Shown here: one piece after another, positions 27,501 to 64,000 of the stretch
Numbering within the stretch: the first letter of the stretch is position 1
How the letters are laid out: each line of letters starts with the position of its first letter
DNA from: Ascidiella aspersa
Lineage: Eukaryota
DNA: 64,000 bases
Assembly: GCA_963924565.1 (NCBI GenBank)
Contig: OZ004608.1
Location: 33,852,001-33,916,000 of the forward strand
Direction of reading: 5' to 3'
Program-made: the position numbers and the translations under genes
The notes under the pieces: generated by a model
Seen by the model: only the letters and a program-made list of their open reading frames with translations
The model's database searches: none
What the model was told of the DNA's origin: nothing

Positions 27501-30500
27501 CAAATTGAAACATTTGAAAACCTATAGAAAGCTTTAGAATGGGCGAAATTATTTTAAACAAAGGGGTAGAGATTTTACCTGGGTTCTTTAGCAGACTTTT
27601 GAACGAAACGGATTTGCCCAAAGTTAACGAACTGGTTAAAAAGAACTACAGCTACCAGCATCCTGGTCGACTAATATTTAAAGTTACGAAAGAGGACATT
27701 GGAAATTTTGACATCGTGGCTGTCAGAGAAAACCTTAAGTGCAACGCTTCTCTTGGAACTTTCGCGAAACAAACTGGCGAACTTGTTGCAGTTGAAACTT
27801 GTACAGTAAACGATTTGAAAGAGGGTGACGGTTATTACAGCCACGCTGCTAGCGAAAGAAACGCCGCTGAGATTCGGTTCGTAAAGTCGGTTTTGGGCGA
27901 CGTGTATTCAGACTTGACCACCAGGCGCTACATGTATTGTACCATTGCTTGTGTAAAAGCGGAATATCGGGCACTGGGGCTGTTTTCCGCCCTCGAAGAC
28001 TTGAGAATGGATCTCGCAAGATTGAGGAACTGTGAATATTTCGTTTCGGTTGCCGGTTCGCTCTACACTCAAAAGTACGCCAAAAGCGCAGGCTATTCGG
28101 TAATGAGGGAAGTAAAGTACGCAGACTACGTGGACCCCAAGACTGGGTTAAAACCAGATCTGCAGCTCTCTTCAATCCATACTTCGTGCCAGATGGTTTA
28201 TAAAAAGGTCCCACTTCTTGTCTAAATCAACAAACCCTTCAAAACGAAAATTACAGTTACCGGTTGCTTAAATTATTTTACAAGTATAGGTACCTCATTC
28301 AAACTGTATTTTTAGGCTTGGCTTTATAAGTCTATCTAATAACCCTTAAGCTTGAATATTTTCAGCGTATCTTTAATTTTTGTCCTAGTATCGTTTGCTC
28401 ATATAGACGGTACAGTTCATAATGTCAACTAATGAAAAGCATCTACTCATCATTAAAGACTCCATTTTTTATTGTTTTGTTAATTTATTACATCGTTTTG
28501 TTTCATTGTTGATATACCCGCAAATAAAACATTCAAAATTACTCTAATTCTTATCGAAAACCAACTCAGGAAAGACTCAATCGGTCGAATGAACAGGTTT
28601 TAAGGTAAATGGTACAGTTGAAGTATACTCTACATTTAATTTCGTGTTAGTTTTTTGTCTAATCCCGCGTCCATTTTGTTACTATTTCCACACGTTAGAC
28701 TCGAAACATTTCCTTCGATTGAGAAGACAAAGGCCTTGTAATTTACAGATTTTTGGTCAATAAAAAATCTTTATAAAACTACATACATATAGATTTATAT
28801 ATATGAACGTATACTCGATGGTTTTGGAGTTTTGTTTGAAATGTTTTACACATCTTATAATAGTAAAAACGTAAACAAGGGATTTAATCTCGTTAGTAAT
28901 TAGCCTACCAAAAAAGGAAAAGCGCAATTAAAAAATTGAAAAATTACAATTAAAAAATTGAAAAATTTTCAATTATATACACAGAGTAATACCAAGCGGT
29001 TACTCCTCCTTTTTTTAGGGGAGAATCCAGTGCAACACCGAAGTTTATTCTATTAAAAGGTTCGTCCGGTACATATTACCGGAACTTATTTTCAGTACTA
29101 TGCCTAGTAGCAACAGCATATTTACCGGGATCTATTGTATAGACATGTTGCTTTATCTTCAATTTTTGTGTCGTTGTGCTAAATCTCATTATGTTGTTGC
29201 AATTTGTTACAGACTGGACACGTTTCCTTCTATTGGGAACAACACATTCGTTCGTGAGATTCCGGATCACAGCGACCCAGTAAATCAATTCCGCTTGAGA
29301 ATTAACGGATCCGACATTTCACCAAGCAGTCGATATGTGTTTGGGATACATCAGATCGGTAAATACTTCATTGTGTGTATCGTTACATTTTTTTTATCTG
29401 TTCCTAGTCTTAAGACATTTTAGCTAAATCAATGGCTTTGTATGCTAGTGGCACAAGTTATTCAACGATTTTGCCTTTGAGGGTTATTATTTCATTAACA
29501 TTTCACCAAGCAGTCGATATGTGTTTGGGATACATCAGATCGGTAAATACATCATTGTGTGTATCGTTGCACTTTTGGATCTGTTCCTAGTCTTAAGGCA
29601 TCTCAGCTGAGTTGATGGCTTGTTCGTGCCACAAGTTATTCAACAATTTTTGTTAGTGCCATAAGTATTTAAAGAATTTTATAACCTCAAATGTGAACTT
29701 GGTAATCGCTAGTAGCAAGCACCGCCCTTTAACGTTGCCTCTTACCGCGTCAGTTTGTGGAACTATACTTCTTCATCGTCATAGTAAACACTTGTCCTTT
29801 GGGGCCTTATGCTTGTGGGTTGTACTTAGACGTAGAATGTATGTCATAGCCCATACAGAAGTATAGGTAGCATATGTTAAAAAAGTATAACAATTGATCG
29901 AAACCTTCGAAGTGTGCTATGTGCTTCTGTACAGGCTTTGATATTTATTGTGTAACGCTTTATTCTGATGACTTAAATGCTGAAATACTTAATACTTTTT
30001 AATTTTAGACGATATAGGGAACGTAACGAAAAAGGAAAACGCAACTCTAAAAGCTTACCTCTTGAGCACGGTTATCACTTCGTGTCGGTTTTGGAACGAG
30101 ACAACAGAAAAGTGGGAAACTGCAGGTAGATTAACACAAACAATAACCTTTGAAGCATAACACACAAGTTCAGTAGCATTTAGAATGAAAACATAAAACT
30201 TGATAAACTTAAAATCTTTTCTAGTTTGAAGCGTTTCGCAAATAGCTCAACGAATCGTCACTGTAAAATATTTTTCGTTTTTTTTTCTCGTAGAGGTTTC
30301 ATCGCTTTTAGTGCTATGTGCTTTTCTCTAATGAAAGCGTAAATACTTTTTAAAATGATTAGAAAAAGAGGTAAAACATGTGAATTTTACCCAGATTTTA
30401 ATTAAAATTTAGTCTTTTTAAATAAAAGTTACATTTTGATAACCATGTGGTGTATATACCTTTTTAGGATGCGTGGTGAGTTCTGAATCAACCTCTTCAA

Positions 30501-51125: not shown

Positions 51126-51493
51126 CAGGAGTTCTTAACCCTTTTTGGATCTTTTACCCTTTCAACAAAGATGAATATCAGATTTACCCCTAATATTTAA
51201 AGTGGTGCTCATTTAATAAAAAAACGAAAGTAACAAATTACATCAGTTATATTTAGTGCGACGGCTGCCCTTGATTTTTGGCAACGAGTTGTTCAATGTC
51301 TGGTAAAGTAGTAGGTAATGCACAACGAAGATCAGATTCAGGTCGATTTTGTGCTTAAGATTTTATAGTAAGCAATGCAGAAAAAACGCTTCGCATAGTT
51401 TAGTTGAAGAAACGGAACCAAACTATTCAGAGCTTGCATACCTTGGATTTACCCCCTAAAACAAGGAAATTTACCCCAGGTTAAGAAGGGCTG
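51126..51493. mobile_element. hAT MITE inserted at the polycystin stop codon
   Basis: caggagttcttaacc / ggttaagaagggctg; ctatagac flanks both sides (one extra c on the left). Confidence 0.72.
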
Positions 51494-51730
51494 CTATAGA
51501 CCCTGTGCAGTTCCACCCTCATGCACGTTAGCACTATAACACCGCCATTGCTGGGTGGGCATTTTGCTGATCTCGTTATGTTCACAACTCGACATTATAT
51601 ATTTTGTTGTTAAAATTCCCGTGCGAGAAAGTTTGAATAAGTACTACAATGGATAGTACTTAAAAAAATACCTTGGATAAAAAATACTGACCTTTGGCGC
51701 GATCAAGTGCTTGGCCAGGGGCTTCAGCAC

Positions 51731-52029
51731 TTTGCCGATGGCTGATTGTTCGAGACGGAGTTTGCCGAACGCGGATTGGTCGAGACGGAGTTTGCCGAAC
51801 GCGGATTGTTCGAGACGGAGTTTGCCGAACGCGGATTGGTCGAGACGGAGTTTGCCGAACGCGGATTGGTCGAGACGGAGTTTGCCGAACGCGGATTGTT
51901 CGAGACGGAGTTTGCCGAACGCGGATTGTTCGAGACGGAGTTTGCCGAACGCGGATTGGTCGAGACGGAATTTGCCGAACGCCGATTGGTCGAGACGGAC
52001 TTACCGATCGCTAATTAGTTGAGACGCAC
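51731..52029. repeat. 30-bp minisatellite, about 10 units
   Basis: (tttgccgaacgcggattg[g/t]tcgagacggag)n. Confidence 0.95.
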
Positions 52030-53782
52030 TTTCCACGCGGCGTCGTCCCAGAGCTATTTTCTTTATTCACAACATCAGAAGTTATTTTAGGATGGTGAAT
52101 ATGAGTATGTATAGGACACAAGACCTTTAATAGAAAACACGTTAATAACCACTGCTGTAGTTCCTTTATAATGTGTCAAAACTTTAGTAGCCTTCTATTA
52201 TTTGTCTACACCACTGGCTCTCAACATTTTTCGGCAGCGTGTCACCCAAGGCTGTTTTACCATCGCCACGTAGGCTATACCACCTTCTTTCTGGAGAAGA
52301 AAGATTGCCTAATTTAATTCTGTTTATTAAAAAAGTCCGAAAAAAAAAAAAAAAAAAAGCTTCTGTATAGGAGCTATATCCGGAGATGCTAGAGCAGGAA
52401 TGTCAGGTCCGTCTGATGTTTATGTGCAGCCCACCACTTATTCTCACTTTCAGTAGGCTTTATTTAAAACAATTGTTTTCACTATCATCAAAACGTGTAG
52501 AACTCGCAGTGTTTAATGTAGGCTAAATCTTATATACTTTAAGACTATAATCGAGTCTAATGTCGCATTTCAACATCCGTCAAACACGTTTGTGCATCAT
52601 TATTGCTAAGCAAGATTGGTGTTTTTCTAAATGTGTGTTTTGCAGGCCTTTTTAAGGAAATATATCAGCTCAAAGGTGTTGTACCATGACATGATACGGC
52701 ATGGCGATATTTACTTGAGTTCACTCTTAAAGAGCGGGTGTTTATAAGTTGGGTTTACACAAATAAAGTTCCAACAAATTTCTTATTACCGATATGGTTG
52801 TACCCAGTTAGTGTGTTTTTAGTTAGCTGCTGATCAATTGCCATTCAAAATTGGCTGAACTGGCAGCTTTAATTCGCTAAGTTTAATATTTATTGTTTAA
52901 ACAACACTCATTTAGTATTAGTCTCCCGGAAAACGACGTTCGCAATAGATTTGTAAACAAATTGCATAGTATACAAGAACTTTTAGTTGATTTTAAAATT
53001 GTCAATGTGTGTATCATTCGACTGGTTTCGCATAAGCCGTAGGCCACTGATGTTTAAAAGTCAGTCAAGCGAGATGAACTGAAGAAGAAATGTCGTTTGT
53101 CATTTTGTCGTCTTGTGGGCTTCCAGCGTCATTTTAAGACTCCAGTCAGTAAAGCACAAACTACTGTGATTTGAGGCGTTGCAATGTAAGTCCAATCGCT
53201 GTAGTTTTTCAAGTAAAGAGCGAGGTTCATTTTGTCAAGCTGAATAAAATTATGGTAAAGTGCGACTTAGCCTACTACCAGACCTAGCATTTTCTATCAC
53301 GACAAGACAGCTTAGTCATGTTGTTATTTACTCGCCGTTTGTACACACTGTTTAAAGAGAAAGTATAACAACTTAAAAACAATTACACTTGTAGTTAAGG
53401 AACAACGAGATTTTATATTGTAAATCGATTAATAGTGACAAAAGTATAAGCTATACGTTAATCTGCTGGGCCCGCATGGAGTTATGATAGAGTTTGACTT
53501 ACTGCCAGACCTAGCATTTTCTTTCACGACAAGACGGATTAGTCATGTTGCCCGCAACCGGCCGTCCGTACACACTTTTATGCATTATTTAACGTATAAA
53601 AAAGTACAAAAATTTATAGTTAAAAACTCACACTTGTATATAACCGGATGAAAATAATTACTGTTTTTTTTTTCTGTTTGCTGCAGCGATGTGAAGTAAC
53701 AAAACATGCCTGATTCAACGCAGGAAATAAAGTGCAACTTTAAGGTTTGACAAAGGCTTACTAGCTGGTCTGTTGGTTAAGT

Positions 53783-54472
53783 ATGGTAAAACCAAGTAAT
53801 GTTGCTCCCGATGTTGGTGTCCAAAATCACATTCATATAGGTACAGCAAACAATTGTTGGTTTCCGGCAAATGCCAAAGATGTGAATAATTTGGCCACCG
53901 ATAATGAAGTTCTACAGGATATCCTTGAACAATTGAGTGAGGTGTTTGGTCGTAAAGATAAAAATGGGAACAACAGGTTTTACAATCACGCCAAAGTTTG
54001 GCTTGAAAAAGAGTCGGCTCGCATGAGCAGTTCCAAGCCGCTTAAGGGTAAGAAAACCTAATTATTTGCAAAAAAGTAATTGTTTTGATTAAATATACTG
54101 TAATAGACAAGGTGGTTTTGGAAATGTGTCAATATAAAAATAACATTTTTACGCTTCGCGCTGTCGCAGTGAGTTATTTAGATGCTATCTAATTGTACAG
54201 ATCTGGCCTACCATTCTTTCTTGTCCCGTGTTTTAAAACTTAAAACTTTAATAAAACTATTGATTGTACTTATTTTTCTATTTATTTTAGTTTCTGTGCA
54301 ATGTGAGAGTGATATTACTGATGGCGCTTCGAAACCTCGTAAAAAGAATCGAGTTCCTTTCAAACGAACACGGATGGTATATTGCGCAAGCATAGTCAAA
54401 TTTCCAATGCATTTACATGAGTTAAGAATGGCTGCTATAGACCCTGTGCAGTTCCACCCTCATTCACGTTAG
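53783..54472 (+). CDS. Truncated/chimeric paralog of the 282-aa gene (join 53783-54047, 54291-54472); possibly a pseudogene
   Basis: Exon 1 peptide clearly homologous (PANAKDVNN, RKDKNGN, SSSKPLK); exon 2 homologous to about RMVY, then runs into the duplicated polycystin 3' segment. Confidence 0.55.
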
Positions 54473-55270
54473 CACTATAATACCGCCATTGCTGGGTGGG
54501 CGTTTTGTTGGGCTCGTTTATGTTCACAACTCGACATTATATATTTTGTTGTTAAAATTGCCGTGCGAGAAAATATTAAAATCGTTGGTCCTTAACTTTA
54601 TTCAAAACAAATACCTTGGATAAAAAATACTGACCTTTGGCGCCATCAAGTGCTTGGCCAAGGGCTTTAGCACTTTACCGATCGCTGATTGGTCGAGACG
54701 GCCTTACCGATCGCTGATTAGTCGAGACGCATCTTTGCCAGCCACACGGCGTCGTCCCAGAGCTCTGAATCTTGTGTATTTCGACTTTGTGTGTTTAAAC
54801 ACTGTTACTGCCGTTGTTAGGTTGCTTCACTGCCTTCCTGGACTCGTTACAGTATATTGCTTTTTGTTGGCATGAACAATGGAAAATTCTGGGAATAAGG
54901 TTGTCCTAACAGCATTTATATTTCTGATATTAGGCCACAACTTTTAAAAAATTTCATAGTCCATCAACGAGAAATATCCTAAACCCGCCCTTGAGTATGC
55001 AAAACTTTTCATTTAAAAACATCTAGTTGCACTACATTTGTAAGTACTTAGGCTATACCTATATGTCTAATTTACAAAATCAGAATTTATTTTGGTTTAG
55101 GATGATACTTATTTAATATCAGAGTATGCATATGGAGTTTGATAGAAAATACGTCAACAACCACTGCTGTAGATTCTTTGTGTTGGGTCAAAACTTTAGC
55201 ACTATTTGTTCCACTTGGACTCAACCCTACCGGCGGCGTGCCGCCCATAAGGGCGTTTTACTGTCGAAAC
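54420..55270 (+). repeat. Diverged direct duplicate of about 51480-52270 (polycystin 3' region)
   Basis: gttaagaa.ggctgctatagaccctgtgcagttccaccctca... shared; only 2 minisatellite units here. Confidence 0.85.
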
Positions 55271-55564
55271 GTTCAACTTGATTTTAAGAGAAAAGAGATC
55301 TACTTACGGAGCATAATGGTTGAAGAATATCAAAGCCCATACAGAAGTGCAGGTATCATTTTCAACGTTTCAAAAAACTCTTTATTCATTTTCAACATAG
55401 TCTAATGATTAAAGAGTTATTCGAAATGTTCAAAATAATAACTAAATATGTATGGGCTTTTAATTCTGATTAGATTTACTTATGTTTACTGAAACACAAG
55501 AAAAATTAATTCATATTCATTACAGCTAAAAATAATCAAAAAAAAAATTGATTGAAGCTATAGC

Positions 55565-57463
55565 CAGGGGCGGATTAAGGCGTGGGCTGAGGGGCTGCAG
55601 CCCCAGGCCCACTAACAAAAATAGGCCCACCGCTAACAACTTAATATGACCAACCGAAGTTATCTTGTATAAAAAGTTATATTTTAGAGATATCACCACA
55701 TCTTTTTTTGAGACCGTCAGGCTGTAAACTTGTGACGTCTGTGCATGCTTGTTACTACACAAATTAAGCTACTATGCGAAAACAAACTTATAACAAACCA
55801 CAATGAGCTACCCTAAGTAATGTTTAGCTCAGCCAGATTGTTACAGGACCTAAAAATCGTGAATGTTTCAAATAATTATTTCGGTGTTGTGCCAGCATGC
55901 TTCGTAAGGTAACAAGCCTCATAGGCAGTGTTAAAGAATTTGTTGTGTAGAGGAGTGTTACAAAAACATGTTAGAATGTGATGTAAGTATAAGGTTTGAC
56001 GAAGTCATGTTTCATGCTAAATTACAAATAAGACTAAAATACAAAAAGTGGTTAGGAAAAGCAAAAATCTAGAAAAGAGAAAAAGTGCGATTGGTGAGCG
56101 GGGACAACTCTGAAAACACATTACCTGACCCATCAAACAGATTTGAAGAAGAACCGTGTTTGCTTTTTCCGTTTCTGGCGGAACTATACCAAGTCTAACC
56201 GTAATATTAAAAAGTGTGCTAAGACTTTGCTTCAGTGTTTTACCCAGATGATCTGAAAAAATCACTGCCTGAAGAGATGATTCATTTTTCTTCACTGCTA
56301 AAACCATTTTAACATAGAAAGTAGCAGCTCAAATGTTTAGATTTGTTAGGGAAAATGAGTTCATGTATGCGTTTTGTAACGTGTCTTTTGTATTAAGGAT
56401 GCATCTTTTATCTAATGCTTACCAATTGTTTAGGCGAACGCTTATTTTCGGTCCTTAAAAGACTACCAAAATGGGTTCGTCTATTCCAAGGGTCGGAACC
56501 TACGAGCCGCGAATACAATTCATCTGGCCCGCCGCCTCTTTGACAAATTAGACAGAGTTTATTTCACATGCTTTTTGACTATTTTAACTACGTAATTGCA
56601 ACAAATTTCCTCGCTTTGCGCGAATGACCATTTTACGTCCGGTTTGTTTACGTTTTGATGCTGTCTTTTCAACTATCAGCGCTTCTTTACCGTTGCGCCG
56701 TGGAAGGCTGCCAAGTGCGTCACGGCGCAACGGAAAACGTATTCAAAAATATTGGACATATATTTTATTAAGAACTTTTATTTTTATTTTCGGCAATGTA
56801 ATAAAAACTTGAAAGAAATTTAAAAGAAATACCGCTATACCAAAAAAAATCGCGCTCGCTTTGCTGACCAGGTGCGCCTTGACTTAAAACGCTTAACAAA
56901 CACTGATTTAACTTTAAATGTTATCGCGTTCCCTCAAAGTAGTTTTATTACACTTGTCATTAGTAGTATGGATGACGACGTGTGAACTCGAATTTTAAAC
57001 CAAACAAATCCCTTTTTTCGCGCTTCGCGTCAACACTTTACTGTCTCTGAAAATGTACCTAAACACGTTTTAAGTGAAAAAAATATCCGAGGCTCCCCTG
57101 ATTGACAGTTGATCTAACATTTCAATAACACAATTCTTAGTTGTCATGTGTGAGGCCCGCAGAGACCTTTCTGCGTTTGGTTTTGGCTCGCGACTAGAGT
57201 TGCCGACTCCTGTCTGCTCAATGGGCCAAAATAGGTTGCATTCCTTAGCTCCACTCTGTATTAAAATCGAGATTTCGGAAAAAAAATACACAGCTATGAA
57301 GTGATCCACAGCATTGTTTTATGTCAAACTAGAAAACATGTTAATTGAATCTGTTTGCTAGGTGAATTAATTTTGGTTGGAACAGTAAACAGAACGAAAA
57401 TAGACCCATAGGCCTCTGACTACCATACAGCCCCAGGTCCATCAAAACCTTAATCCGGTCCTC
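55565..57463 (+). mobile_element. Decayed hAT (Tip100-like) transposon with transposase remnant
   Basis: TIR caggggcggattaagg / ccttaatccggtcctc; TSD gctatagc/gctatagg; hAT dimerization-domain relic LMLTNCLGERLFSVLKRL (about 56410-56465) continuing MGQNRLHSL (about 57221). Confidence 0.78.
56487..57212. mobile_element. hAT MITE interrupting the transposase remnant
   Basis: caagggtcggaac / gttgccgactcctg ends; splits the dimerization-domain relic. Confidence 0.65.
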
Positions 57464-58271
57464 GCTATAGGCCTATATCATGTGTATATACACATACTTC
57501 CAAGTGATGATCCATACATGTCACCCTAAACTCTATTTTTTGCTTGGTTTATTAAATAATTCAAAAATATATTTTTTCGCGATTCACGAATCATATCTGT
57601 CTTTTCAATATGTTTTACGCGTTTTTTTGCAGATTGACAGCCTAATAGCAACTTCTGTACAGTGGCACTCTTTTAAACGAAAGTTTTGGAAACTTAATAC
57701 TAAGTGCATTTTTTACGCTTGAATCGAATGTATTCAGTCTTTAAAATATTAACAAAGACCATGGTATAACGGCCCTCTTCCAATCTCCTAATATTTGAGA
57801 TCCTCTTGTTGACCGAGTGTGCCACACAATTATGTGCTTTTCATTGCATTAGAAATAAGTTTTGCAACCCTTATTACGTCTGCCATGGGCCAATTGCAAT
57901 ACAAAACAGTGCTAGGGGGTAACTATATTTAGACAAACAACTGACGTTTAATTGGGTGTATAAACTTCACAGTCAACATATAAAGTGCTTTCTTGCAATA
58001 AACACAACATGAAAGGCATTGTTGTAAATATCCTCTCTTGGGTTAGTTTTTTGTGTCAAAGCGACTTGAACTAACTTTTTTAATCCAAGATTTTTAAAAC
58101 TTGGATAAAAAATATAGGCTGTATTTAAATTGAATACATTCTTCGTAAAATCGTGAATTCTACTTTAAATGTTACGCTTAAAGCAGACTTTCAGTTTACT
58201 CGTTAGAATCACTTGTTTACAATCTGATGAGAAGTATCGTTTTACGAAAACCAGTTGTTAAAAGGTCCTCT

Positions 58272-58282
58272 GGGAATTTCCC
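58272..58282. promoter_or_regulatory. NF-kB consensus site GGGAATTTCC(C)
   Basis: Matches GGGRNNYYCC on both strands; lies in an 80-bp block duplicated at about 60157-60235. Confidence 0.4.
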
Positions 58283-60195
58283 AGATTAAAAGACCCAACT
58301 TTTGGGTATCGTTGGACCAGGAGTCACCAAACTACAGCCCGCGGGCCAGATCCGCCGGGACAATTAGTTCGGTCTGCGACATATTTCCTTAATGAAGACG
58401 ATTGAAATTCAAAACTAAATTTTATTGAAATTGTAAACTGTATGACAATCTATTAAGGCCGACCATAGTTGTTATTGCAAAGTTATGTATATTTCCTTTG
58501 TCAACAATAATTAGGTTAATGAAGTTCAACAAAAATATGTATTCTGTTTAGTAAGTCGTCAAACTTGTCACCGCCAATCGGTGTACCTCAAAAATAAAAT
58601 ATTTACTAATATTCAGGTGAAGAAAGTCCTAATTATATTTTGAACATATCTCTAGAAACAAAATAAAAAAATTGTCATTTGTTATATTATTACACAATAT
58701 TAGTCATAAACAATATATATAGTGACATCCTACCCTGTTGGCTTAACTTTAACCTATCATACAAACAAGTTTATTCAAGGCTATACCTGTTAAATTTCTT
58801 TATAGCAGAGAATCGTATATATAAAACGCTTTACACGATTTTTTCGACTTGACAAACAAATATGTTACAATCGCACATATACATGAATCACGCCTTCTAA
58901 AAAAGGAAGTTTATTAACAGAATTTACAACTTGAACAGACCGGTAAACGTTTTCACAAGTTTCTGTGCAGAAACATAAATTGTGATACAACAGCGACCGG
59001 ATATTATCGTTTTTCGCAGCCTGTAAAAGGTTTAGTGTCAGTCCTAACTATAAAAGGGGCCGTACCTTTGCTACTTTCAACATGCAAGTTTAAATATTGT
59101 GAGAATGCAACATCGTATTCTTGGCAGGTTATCACATATAGTCGAAATATTCAAAGCGATAAAAAAGCTCCAACATTTACACAATTATGTAACATAAATG
59201 CGAACTTTCTTAAAACGTGTTTTTTAGGGATCTTATTATTACTTGTCATTTGATAGTTGCATTGGAGCTTGATTTAACCAAAACAAATTGTACGAACGGA
59301 CTGATGGCCACTTTCTGCAGTTAACAAGCCATAGCCTACTGCAAGAAAGAATGACAACCTAAAATAAAACAAAAATAATGACAAGTTGCAAAAAGAAGCA
59401 ATTCTGCTACTCAAGTGGAGGCTGCTATGAAATGTACAGAAAAGTTTTCAAACGCCAATGTAACTGCTTTGGCGAATGGTTAATTGCAAAACAAAACAGT
59501 ACAAGAAGCTTAATATTTACATAAGCCTTCTGGTAAAAATGCAGTGATGTTACCTCATTTAAAGTTAGTATTTTATGTCACTTTGACGTCCTATAAACGT
59601 CATTAGGGTAATTTGCTTAGATTAAAGCTACGTGTATAAATCGGCTGCATTTGTGATAAAATTGGTGTATTTCCTACTTTGTTACACTCAAAAAAAAAAT
59701 TACGCAAAATAGCATTAAACTGGCGTTGTTAATTAATAAAATGGCTGGAGTGGGATTTTCTTTTTCGTAAGACCTAAAGACAAAAAATGAGACTCAAAGT
59801 TTAAAAACTCGCGTGAAACCCATGATCAAAAAATTATCTAAAAGGAATATATATTTCGCCCAAACTGGCGTTATCAGTTTCTGTAAGTAAAGCAAAATCC
59901 ATATACACAGCAAATTAATCACAAAATTTATAAAAAAATTACAAACATATGACAGCAATGCAGAATAATTAAAAAGTTTTAAAACTAAACAGGCTATCAG
60001 GAGAAAACTATAGTTTTCTGCATGCCGATCGTAATGTAGAGCAGCGCCGCGCTGACTGGGTAACCTGGCGTGTCATTCCATAACAACAAATCGAAAAGAA
60101 AGGAAAAAAGTAAATAGAGAAGAGCTTAGGGCTAAGGTCATAAATTGCGTAACCAAGAGAAGTATCGTTTACGAGAGAAAAGTAAAAGGCCCACT

Positions 60196-60206
60196 GGGGA
60201 TTTCCC
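60196..60206. promoter_or_regulatory. NF-kB consensus site GGGGATTTCC(C)
   Basis: Matches GGGRNNYYCC on both strands; about 110 bp beyond the stop of the 282-aa gene. Confidence 0.4.
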
Positions 60207-60312
60207 GGATTAAAAGTCCCGACTTTTCTGTATCATTTCAACTGTATAGGTGTAAACACATTGCGCATAACGAAGGTGATTAACTGGAAGGCCAATATTA
60301 AAATGCTATGTG

Positions 60313-61455
60313 TTACACCACATATTTGGCAAGTGGACAGTTGTCCACTGTTTCCTCTCGATCAATTTCATCAAAGTCGGCAGTGTAAAACCGATCAATT
60401 ACACGTATTTTTTCGTTGCCGAAGAGATCATCAGCGGCAAGTTTTCCTTCTACTTCGATATTTCGTTCTTTGTATGTAGCGTGTGTGTTTGTATTTGCAT
60501 TCACCGAAAACTTCAACTCTTCACCACCATATGTAATTGAAATACGCTGGTTTAAGTTCATGAAAAGACATGTGTGCTTTTCGCCATCCCTTGATATTTC
60601 TAGCAAAGACCGGGAACCATTTCTAAAAATGACTGCAAGCCTGACAATACCGCTTTCAGGGGCATTCACGGTTTTGGTTTGTTTGGGTTCAATGCCCTTG
60701 TAGTCTCCGAATTTCCATTCCTTGACATTCCCGGGACCAAATTTGACTTTGACGAGAATTGATTGGTTTCTTCCGACGAACACCATAGTTGTTCGTTTTG
60801 GAGGAATTCGATTTTTTTTGTGAGGTTGCGGAGAGGCATTAGGGCTCACAGTATTATCACTCTCACATGGCACAGGGCCTAAAAGATAATCGAAAATTAC
60901 ACCATCATCTGTATTTGAGTATTTTAAATAAAATATTGAAATATACTGGATAAACATGTTCCGTTTACGAACAAGTACAATCAATAGTTTTATTAAACGT
61001 TGTGTGCAAGTTTTAAAACACAAGACAAGAAAGAATTATACTAACAGGTAGGCCAAATCTGTACATTTAGATAACTCCTAAATAACTAACTGCGATAGCG
61101 CGAAGCGTAAAAAAGCTATTTTTATATACACACAAAACAGTTACTTCTCTAGAAATTATTATGTTTTCTTACTCTTAAGCGGCTTGGAACTGCTTTTGCG
61201 CGCCGACGCCTTTCCAAGGCAATCTTTGACGTAATTGTCGACCCAGTAGTTTCCATTTTTATCCTTCCGATTAAACACGTCACTCAATTGTTGTTCAAGG
61301 ATAGCCTGTACACCATGAACTCCATTGTCGGTCGTCCAATTGTTCACATCCTTGGCATTTGCCGGAAAGCAACAGTGGCTTGCCGTACCGATTTGAAAGT
61401 GATTTTGGACCGCAACTGAACCAACATCAGGAGTAACAGTACCTAGTTTTACCAT
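60313..61455 (-). CDS. Two-coding-exon orphan gene (join 61173-61455, 60313-60878), 282 aa; RHIM-like N-terminus plus beta-rich C-domain
   Basis: ATG at 61455; donor aaga|gtaaga; acceptor cttttag|gc; phases match; open to TAA at 60313; exon structure conserved with paralog at 53783; upstream 5'UTR intron (about 61551-61820) also conserved. Confidence 0.7.
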
Positions 61456-64000
61456 ACTTAAATCACAGAACGCTTAGGAAGACTTTGGCATACCTTATTT
61501 CACTTTATTTCCTGCGTTGAACCAGGCATGTTTTGTTACTTTTCATCGCTGCAGCAAACAGGAAAAAAAAAACAGTAACTATTTTCATACGGTTATATAC
61601 AAGTGTGAGTTATTAACTACTAAGTTTTTGTACTTTCTCTTTTCGTTAAACTATGCAAAAATAGTGAGTACGGAAGGCCAATTACGACAACATGACTAAG
61701 CTGCCTTGTCGTGAAAGAAAATGCTAGATCTGGTAGCAAGTCGAACTTTACAATAATTTTATTCAGCTTGTCAAAATGTACCTCGCAGATCACTTGAAAA
61801 ACTACAGCGATTGGACCTACATTGAAACGCCTCAAATCACAACAGTTTATGCTTTACTGATTGCAGTCTTAAAATAACGCTGGAAGCCCCCAACACGACA
61901 AAATAACAAAACGATATTTGTTTTTCTGTAAATCTCGGTTGACTGATTTGCAATGCAAACACCAGTACGACCCATACGGAACCAGTCGTATGGGTTTCGA
62001 ACACACATTGACAATTTTAAAAGCAATTAAAAGTGCTGGCATATGCAATTTGTTCACAAATTTAATGCGAACGGCGTTCTCCGGGAGACTAATACTAAAT
62101 GTGGGTTGACTAAACAATAAATATTAAACTTGGCCAATTAAAGCTGCCAGTTCATCCAATTTTAAATGATAGTTTATCAGCAGCTAACCAAAACACACTA
62201 ATTGGGTCCAACCATAGCGGTAATAAGACGTTTATTGGAACTCGTTTAGTGTAAACCAGTGTTTCTTACCTGTGGTACACGTACCAGGAGTGGTGCACAA
62301 CGGCCTACTTGTTGAACGCGAGCAGTTTTACATAATGATTATACCACACAAATAGATTAACTTAGCTTATGTTTCTGTCACCATGAATCGATCTACAATC
62401 TAAACTTCCGGATAGCCTACACACATAGAAAAAGTCGCAATTATTTTTACGTATGTGCCGTACCGACTTCGTAAACGTTTTCTTAACAAAAAACAGCTAG
62501 AACAGACTTGCCATTCGGTTGTGAAATTAGCCCAGAAAATACCTAGACAAAATGTTTTAAGGTTATGTAAAAAGCAGCCTTCACTATAACAGTGAATTTG
62601 CCTTATTACTTTTATTTATATTACATTTGCAGTAATATTACGTACATCATTGGTAGCCTAAGTAAAACATATTTCTGATGCAAAACAATTTGGTTTGGCG
62701 CTCCAAGCGGGCATATATGACTTTGTAGTGAAAATGTTCATTGCCCCAAAGCATATTCAAGCCAAAATGTATTTAGACTGCTTTCGCGTAAACGCAGAAA
62801 AACAAACGTCCGTTGTTCAATGTCAAAGTCGCCTAATGAGTTATCACCCGCATAAAAGTGTGTTCTATTTTAGTCTAGCAAAAACAGCTTGCCACGACTC
62901 TCGTCGTAACATTAGTTGCTGCTGATTTGTCAAAGAAAGTGACGTGTGCTGATAAAACAGCTCAATCGGTGAGGAAACCTTGAATATTTTAAGGAAAACG
63001 TCATAAAATGTCGTCATAACGTAACGTTATTGGGCAAGTAACCGTGATAAAATTCTCATTGGCGGTCGAATTCATGCTAAATATGCAACTAAATGCGAGC
63101 ATGAAGTTTGCGTTTACTTGGTTTAGTTGGCAAACTTTATAAATACTTGGCGCAATAAGCACACAAAAAAAAAAAAAAAAAAAAAAGATTCTGAATCAAT
63201 GCGGCAAATTTTTTGATTTGCAAAGTTGGGCATTAAGATCTGTAATAATGTAGCCTAATATACAAGATTTAAAATTGACGGGTGAACATAGTAACTAAAA
63301 CATGACAAGGACCGTTTTTTTAATTGTGACTCCCATTCGCCTGCTTAATTGCTTGCTCTACATTCGGACGATAATGCTGCAGCCCTATTTGTTGCGCTGA
63401 AATGGTGTTAAAGTAAACTGACCAAGGAGTAAACCTGGACAGGAAAGTTTGGTCAAACATTAACAGGAGAAAAAGAAAAAAAGAAAAGACTACGAAAAAG
63501 GCATTCTAGTGTTATTAGTTATTCACTGGTGCGTCTTTTTCCTCATTGTTTATGGTTAACTGAAGTAGGAGTTACTATAAACTAGAGTGGACAAAGTCAT
63601 GTCAGTAAGCAACCTTCTACCGATTGTGGATTTTGGGAAATGCTCAATCGAAAGAGACGACTTTACCAGGGAAAGTCTAGTTGAAGTTGGCAATAAGCTT
63701 CTGAAGGCATTTTCAGAAGTCGGATTTGTCTATTTGAGGAATTGTGGAATAACCGAGTAAGTATGCTTTAGAACAGGGGTTCTTAAACTGGGGTCCAATG
63801 GACCCCTTGGGGGTCCGTGAATTAGTTTTAGGGGGTCCATGAAAGCCCAATTGAAATATTAGTGTATGCTAATGAAGTAATCAATTTATAAAAAAAAAAA
63901 ATTAATTAAAAACAAAACGTGTTTGCACTGAATGTATTTAGACTTAAATCCTCTTACCCATTTTTGGACCAAAATCAGCAAAATTAAAAAGTTTATTTGT

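Follow-up and report, generated by a model that had tools for sequence, protein, structure and literature searches.

Among invertebrates, tunicates are the closest relatives of vertebrates. The signalling of the NOD-like receptors (NLRs) of ascidians poses a question: these receptors have been reported to have no N-terminal signalling domain (PMC11508797), tunicates appear to lack RIP homotypic interaction motifs (RHIMs; PMC4262963) and no tunicate RIPK1 was found (PMC12119088), yet at least 96 NACHT matches are present in the genome considered here. The present analysis concerns a stretch of 64,000 nucleotides of Ascidiella aspersa (contig OZ004608.1, positions 33,852,001 to 33,916,000; hereafter the window), which holds an inverted pair of orphan genes whose N-terminal segment was interpreted by a first-pass annotation as a RHIM-like motif of a candidate innate immune module. 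Is this motif a RHIM, and to which other proteins does it connect the pair? We propose, with roughly even confidence and guided by sequence and analogy, that the motif at the N terminus of the minus-strand protein is an amyloid-like signalling tag which couples that protein to an activated NLR. No paper on such a tunicate motif was found in a literature search that left most subscription journals outside its reach.

The two genes, located at 52752-54378 on the plus strand and at 62257-60782 on the minus strand, were matched by blastn as inverted homologues in three pieces of 73 to 83% identity, which bears out the inverted homology announced earlier for about 52750-54390 (+) and about 60770-62257 (-). 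By segment, the upstream intron is 85.7% and exon 1 83.8% identical between the copies, with 87.3% for the coding intron and 74.7% for the part of exon 2 that they have in common. All gene models presented here were predicted on the basis of splice-site letters and a crude model of codon use; they assign 282 amino acids to the minus protein, which carries a beta domain of about 160 amino acids behind the motif, and 148 amino acids to the plus protein, which no longer has this domain and in which the last 30 or so residues are unrelated to the minus copy (exon coordinates in Table 1). The start codon and phase-1 coding intron are common to both copies, as had been described, with an ATG in good context at 53783 and 61455 and a GT-AG intron at the same place. 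The 5′ untranslated region (5′UTR) intron, likewise said to be the same, is common in its body and acceptor, whereas the minus donor, GTAAGA at 62269, falls 12 nt beyond the duplicated segment and is not matched by any site before the plus copy. The tetrads that gave rise to the RHIM label are located as claimed, IHIG starting at 53831 and FQIG at 61398.

The connection of the minus gene with immunity emerges from the NLRs. Among the 30 NACHT matches for which upstream DNA was examined, a motif exon was found in four, which are all four of the C3:2.52-2.58 Mb cluster. A matrix scan of NLR upstream regions matched one of the first 20 loci (13.3, with the next at 8.6 and the best antisense match at 8.0) and none of seven more, while three cluster neighbours of the first matching NLR were found to carry the motif exon as well. 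This exon, AG...GT-bounded and in the sense orientation, follows a predicted ATG exon of 44 to 45 amino acids; in the predicted architecture, a short linker exon separates it from the NACHT and leucine-rich repeat (LRR) exons, both domains having Pfam support. The window and NLR motifs are identical at 13 of 27 positions in a near-gapless alignment (48%; single-comparison E 6e-5) and have VQN-x-F and ANA-[KR]-DVN in common. A hidden Markov model (HMM) of the NLR copies alone gave L032, a paralogue of the minus gene, as its top non-self match (E 0.059), the two being reciprocal best matches. When an HMM without NLR rows was applied to 1,787 candidate exons on both strands, drawn from 29 NLR upstream regions with L147 left out, the four NLR exons occupied ranks 1 to 4 (E 0.005 to 0.023; next 0.51). 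The earlier suggestion of an innate immune link through an N-terminal amyloid-like motif is supported by these results, the motif being common to NLR N termini.

Nineteen copies of the motif were collected at 15 loci, namely five loci of the beta-domain family, four NLRs, five small genes and one filamin-repeat gene. A genome pattern derived from the five family copies gave six matches (three in the control), these being the five copies themselves and a new gene on contig C4, in which two further copies occupy neighbouring phase-1 exons; regional HMM scans on C4 added a paralogue of this gene with three copies and three genes with a single N-terminal copy. Two of the small genes are triple motif pseudo-repeats, with a Pro-rich linker in one. 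All five small predicted genes are encoded within G000:C4:6158000-6181500 (L063-L066), where the two with three copies are on the plus strand and the three with one N-terminal copy on the minus strand; Lys/Arg-rich exons follow the motif in at least two of the latter, and no folded domain was seen in the cluster. The filamin-repeat gene (L161, G000:C6:9275600-9278500, minus strand) specifies a single filamin repeat (Pfam E 2.5e-15) and then a terminal motif exon.

A matrix from six non-window copies placed the window motifs at the top of their respective strands within the 64 kb (18.5 and 15.2; next 5.3). With an HMM of 13 copies, lacking window and NLR rows, the minus motif was the top non-training match of 24,618 open reading frames (ORFs; E 0.097) and the plus motif scored E 1.6, the best reversed-sequence control reaching 0.42; a 17-copy HMM recovered the 19 copies at E<=4.1e-5 (next match E 1.8), 17 of the 19 being training rows. 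Copies contain 4 to 11 Asn plus Gln and 1 to 6 Gly per 24 to 26 amino acids and sit in phase-1-ending exons on unrelated domains (NACHT-LRR, beta domain, filamin repeat). Taken at the level of predicted genes, the sequences demonstrate a shared modular motif on NLRs, the beta-domain family, a filamin-repeat protein and motif-only genes.

Other short exons, rich in His, Asn, Gln, Ile and Val, precede the NACHT exon at L108-L117 (the C1 NLRs), L120, L122, L123 and L142-L147. A second NLR motif class recurs in eight of ten sampled C1-type loci (four being training rows and two weak), L123 harbors a VNIG tetrad, and L118 and L119 have exons that look death-fold-like by eye. Two paralogues of the beta-domain family are located 113 kb from a C1 NLR cluster, the sampled members of which do not carry the motif. 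A second motif class that would join the C1 NLRs to an exon on C4 and to the Clavelina homologue seemed plausible by eye but found no support (E 6.6, and absent from the class-2 HMM lists). BHF was also weighed and dropped, being described as disordered with helices (PMC12065747).

The RHIM label itself did not hold, as no PF12721 match was obtained, the tetrad varies at two of its four positions between the copies, and it is unconserved in the paralogues. Pfam returned no families at E<=10 for either exon-1 translation, HMMER filters dropping weak matches, and the window is not among the 14 genome-wide PF12721 matches. Twelve of these 14 (L016-L029) contain or closely resemble one dispersed, apparently non-coding repeat reading SGVQLG or similar, which includes the sole match over the curated cut-off and is a trap for six-frame RHIM searches. 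The tetrad [IVFL][QH][IVFL]G occurs 233 times in 942,147 residues of six-frame ORFs, or about once per 100 stretches of 45 amino acids; its sighting here is more than chance, but the two copies represent one observation. It is present at the expected place in two of 17 aligned motif copies, the window rows only, two others having the looser tetrads VTFG and LNLG. Most non-window copies have a hydrophobic-x-Gly turn at this place, and the Asn/Gly-rich N-terminal exon of paralogues L002, L032 and L035 can be aligned to the window segment at either end and has no tetrad. Between the window copies, all five non-synonymous changes of the motif fall in its tetrad half, FPANAKDVNN showing none and two synonymous ones. 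FQIG and IHIG both depart from the RHIM core V/I-Q-V/I-G, which is described as highly conserved with natural variants including LQIG and CQIG (PMC12119088); IHIG is one conservative change from the insect cryptic RHIM (cRHIM) VxxG (PMC13506858), and is not conserved within the family. Judged from the alignments, the conserved unit is a motif of about 24 amino acids, rich in Asn, Gly and Val and ending in (A/G)-(G/K/R)-D-V-N, and not a RHIM.

The C-terminal domain of the minus protein was modelled by AlphaFold2 with a predicted local distance difference test score of 90.7 and a predicted template modelling score of 0.86, as beta strands with helices at the C terminus only. It has no clear PDB or Pfam counterpart, and homologues were found in tunicate-type sequences only, in agreement with the first-pass view of a lineage-specific family with an unnamed C-domain. 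Fold matches to CE-clan cysteine proteases (SENP1, NEDP1, SseL) and the clostripain light chain had Z scores below the tool's typical background best of 7 to 8, and the catalytic His and Cys of CE- or CD-clan proteases are not conserved in the family. Its alignment has invariant F, V, F and G columns, no His or Cys column conserved in at least seven of ten members, and only one Thr and one Asn among polar columns at that level; no membrane helix was detected, the highest 19-residue hydropathy being 0.79. The family comprises nine loci in the genome, five of them with the motif. In the domain tree, which was midpoint-rooted for drawing only, motif-bearing loci occur on either side of the main split (100/100), while all four loci without the motif group in a single clade (99/98), a distribution that, as far as these sequences go, fits an old association followed by one loss. 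The paralogue L035 (G000:C1:38099738-38101005) has an intact motif exon and a domain exon with no obvious acceptor and an early C-terminal divergence, and is perhaps damaged.

The mechanism that we propose for the amyloid-like tag is drawn by analogy with NWD2/HET-S and PNT1/HELLP (PMC7889193) and with BASS/Bell (10.1101/2020.01.06.895854). Ligand-driven oligomerisation would gather the motifs of C3-type NLRs and so seed a cross-beta stack, with which the window protein would co-assemble via its own motif, its beta domain thus becoming clustered. Because no catalytic residues are conserved and no membrane helix is present, this domain would most likely represent a docking platform and not an enzyme or a HeLo/MLKL-type pore. 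Motif-only genes may amplify or damp the assembly, like Pirk in the Imd pathway (PMC4262963, PMC13506858). On a wider and more tentative reading, possible though short of probable, sea squirts may run their expanded NLR repertoire via an amyloid motif set of their own, in place of RHIMs or death-fold domains, the present motif class being a full circuit in which NLRs are joined by amplifiers or inhibitors with several repeats, by an adaptor with a filamin repeat and by beta-fold effectors including the window gene, with the plus copy as a motif-only decoy.

Several observations weigh against coupling through an amyloid-like tag. The motif is short and compositionally biased, and the statistics are modest: when the window rows were also withheld from the candidate-exon test, the NLR exons scored E 0.04, 0.04, 0.25 and 2.5 against 0.27 for the antisense control; among all six-frame ORFs they reached just E 0.26 to 1.5, or 2.2 and worse with the 13-copy HMM; and an HMM built solely from the window pair left them within noise (E 12 to 19). 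Three of the four motif NLRs are near-identical paralogues, so that effectively about two independent sequences are counted; three of the four, moreover, joined the set after the first match. A second genome pattern gave 11 matches versus 10 in the reversed control, five of the 11 looking non-coding and being taken as chance, while a third gave 10 versus 9, comprising seven known copies, the filamin-repeat gene and two non-coding-looking chance matches; as such counts are close to those of the reversed controls, they prove nothing in themselves, and the weight lies with exon context. Receptor and partner genes are not adjacent, the window gene being on C2 and the matching NLRs on C3, and the motif is N-terminal on the partner protein. 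Pro occurs in the motif core of the window copies, and Pro substitutions abolished BASS3 foci (PMC9815663). The window copies are also the most divergent members of the family, four paralogues do without the motif, and it was not detected with the homologues of two other species (best E 6.8 in the 10 kb upstream of P0001; none in Clavelina P0003). Because neither of these homologues shows the motif, its link to the domain may be lineage-specific, or the genes of the other species may rely on a different class of motif. Upstream of P0001, a stretch reading CNNVNIGQC was tried as a motif and set aside, as good exon support was lacking.

The motif might be a genuine shared interaction tag that is not amyloid, that is, a short linear or beta-augmenting motif through which a single folded partner, common to all, is bound and NLRs, beta-domain proteins and adaptors are thereby recruited to the same complex. 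Such a tag would explain the motif distribution equally well, and it would sit comfortably with the tolerance of Pro, Cys and up to five charged residues per copy and with the invariance of just the last 10 or so residues between the window copies; we nevertheless hold it to be unlikely, since the length of about 24 amino acids, the Asn/Gln/Gly richness, the triple pseudo-repeats and the motif-only proteins fit amyloid systems better (PMC7889193; 10.1101/2020.01.06.895854). Compositional convergence of short Asn/Val/Gly-rich exons, which would leave an ordinary lineage-specific orphan gene with a broken duplicate, draws on the modest E values of unrestricted searches, on pattern controls as large as the match counts and on the two motif-less species, but is very improbable in view of the near-gapless 48% identity, the reciprocal best match with L032, the top four ranks among the candidate exons and the recurrence in phase-1-ending exons attached to unrelated domains. 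A true or cryptic RHIM in which FQIG/IHIG forms the functional core is, in our estimation, very improbable too. The chance rarity of the tetrad (about 1% per 45 amino acids), the retention of its I-G in both copies, the Asn-Asn three residues on in the plus copy and the VTFG of another copy favor it, but Pfam matches neither exon 1, the paralogue and NLR copies carry no tetrad, and the non-synonymous changes between the window copies all fall in the half of the motif with the tetrad.

The system might, finally, be real and the window pair have drifted out of it, with a degenerating motif, a beta domain acting alone as in the four motif-less paralogues, and a plus copy that is a pseudogene; we consider this distinctly unlikely. 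In favor of such drift are the core Pro, a hydrophobic-x-Gly turn displaced by one residue, an exon identity that does not exceed that of the introns and a plus copy that has no 5′UTR donor and sits between two copies of one repeat. Against this, the ratio of non-synonymous to synonymous rates (dN/dS) between the copies is 0.53 overall (bootstrap 95% 0.31-0.89) and, on small counts, 0.18 in the motif versus 0.66 elsewhere; all four coding indels are in frame, compared with five of 16 non-coding ones; 118 aligned codons contain no stop; and the window motif retains the VQN-x-F and ANA-[KR]-DVN of the NLR copies. All four coding indels are gaps in the plus copy, and insertion in the minus copy could explain them as well. 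The truncation is bridged at 54209-54572 by a contig (six other letters, one gap) from run X1, a run that perhaps derives from the source sample. Contig record 2 of the same run, compared with window 60507-60997, is plus-type, with the plus letter at nine of 12 listed differences and the same 9-nt gap, and enters the beta domain before a frameshift near residue 192 and an end near residue 219, a point which also favors drift; it represents the other haplotype or else a third copy missing from the assembly. Because this other plus-type contig runs into the beta domain, the plus copy is a duplicate that was truncated secondarily, for which decay is slightly likelier than a role as decoy.

Table 1. 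Features of the inverted gene pair and flanking repeats (positions in the window).
Feature	Positions	Strand	Basis or remark
Coding exon 1 of the minus gene, 94 codons + 1 nt, with motif, basic linker and, between them, a short helical segment	61173..61455	-	ORF, ATG context, GTAAGA donor; predicted
Shared motif of about 24 amino acids, minus gene (residues 16-39, VQNHF...ANAKDVNN)	61339..61410	-	FQIG at 61387-61398
Minus gene, coding exon 2: linker and beta domain of about 160 amino acids (about 60316-60800)	60313..60878	-	Homologues; AlphaFold2
Minus gene, predicted 5′UTR intron (donor 62269, acceptor ending 61549)	61549..62269	-	Splice-site letters
Plus copy, coding exon 1	53783..54047	+	DNA identity 83.8%; indels (9, 6 and 3 nt) preserve the frame
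Shared motif, plus copy (residues 13-36)	53819..53890	+	IHIG at 53831-53842
Plus copy, truncated exon 2	54291..54472	+	No homology beyond about 54385; the frame reads on through repeat-derived DNA to a stop
Repeated element, left copy, flanking the plus copy	51480..52187	.	30-bp tandem array at 51731-51999
Same repeated element, right copy, just past the truncation point	54421..55199	.	85% identity over 325 nt to left copy

Elsewhere in the window, 1500-47300 (+) is occupied by a long multi-exon gene which, by eye, resembles one for a polycystin-1-like protein; an intronic ORF of 235 amino acids within it (27518-28225) seems to resemble an acetyltransferase.

Because NLRs, the beta-domain family and motif-only proteins have one motif in common, candidate downstream partners can be named. 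Should the proposed coupling be true, a chordate would join the organisms with amyloid signalling from receptor to partner in the fungal style, here by way of a motif other than RHIM, and the partner would contribute a domain for which no clear relative has been solved.

Amyloid-motif signalling is already a known kind of system. The fungal NLR amyloid pairs (NWD2/HET-S with HRAM, PNT1/HELLP with PP, sigma and PUASM; PMC7889193, PMC9815663) resemble the present case in having an Asn/Gln/Gly-rich motif of some 20 to 25 amino acids at the NLR N terminus in common with a second protein, as well as pseudo-repeats and several motif classes per genome. Here, in contrast, the receptors are animal NACHT-LRR proteins, the partner motif is N-terminal, the genes are not adjacent, the partner is all-beta instead of HeLo/HELL or an enzyme, and the tunicate motif follows neither an NxGxQxGxN nor an FxGxGxQxxGxGxF pattern. 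With its beta model, N-terminal motif and low hydropathy maximum, the partner is not a helical membrane effector of the HeLo/HELL/Bell/MLKL type with a C-terminal motif. The bacterial BASS/Bell (10.1101/2020.01.06.895854) and Bab/Agp (10.1101/2024.11.07.622273) systems likewise have a motif common to receptor and partner and two or three pseudo-repeats with a Pro-rich spacer, pseudo-repeats being described for BASS1/6 (10.1101/2020.01.06.895854). An ARD tripeptide near the motif end, reported for BASS2 and NLR-side PUASM (PMC9815663), is also present in three NLR copies here; this likeness to the bacterial systems is one of description, and no Bell-like helical bundle or gene pairs are seen here. 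Metazoan RHIM, insect cRHIM, amphioxus RHIM-NACHT and Pirk/Rudra (PMC4262963, PMC12119088, PMC13506858) differ in that the tunicate motif has no conserved V/I-Q-V/I-G or VxxG core and no PF12721 match, and is conserved instead at its (A/G)-(G/K/R)-D-V-N end; they are alike in that a short motif replaces a death-fold domain on immune proteins, and Pirk is the counterpart of a motif-repeat protein without a folded domain.

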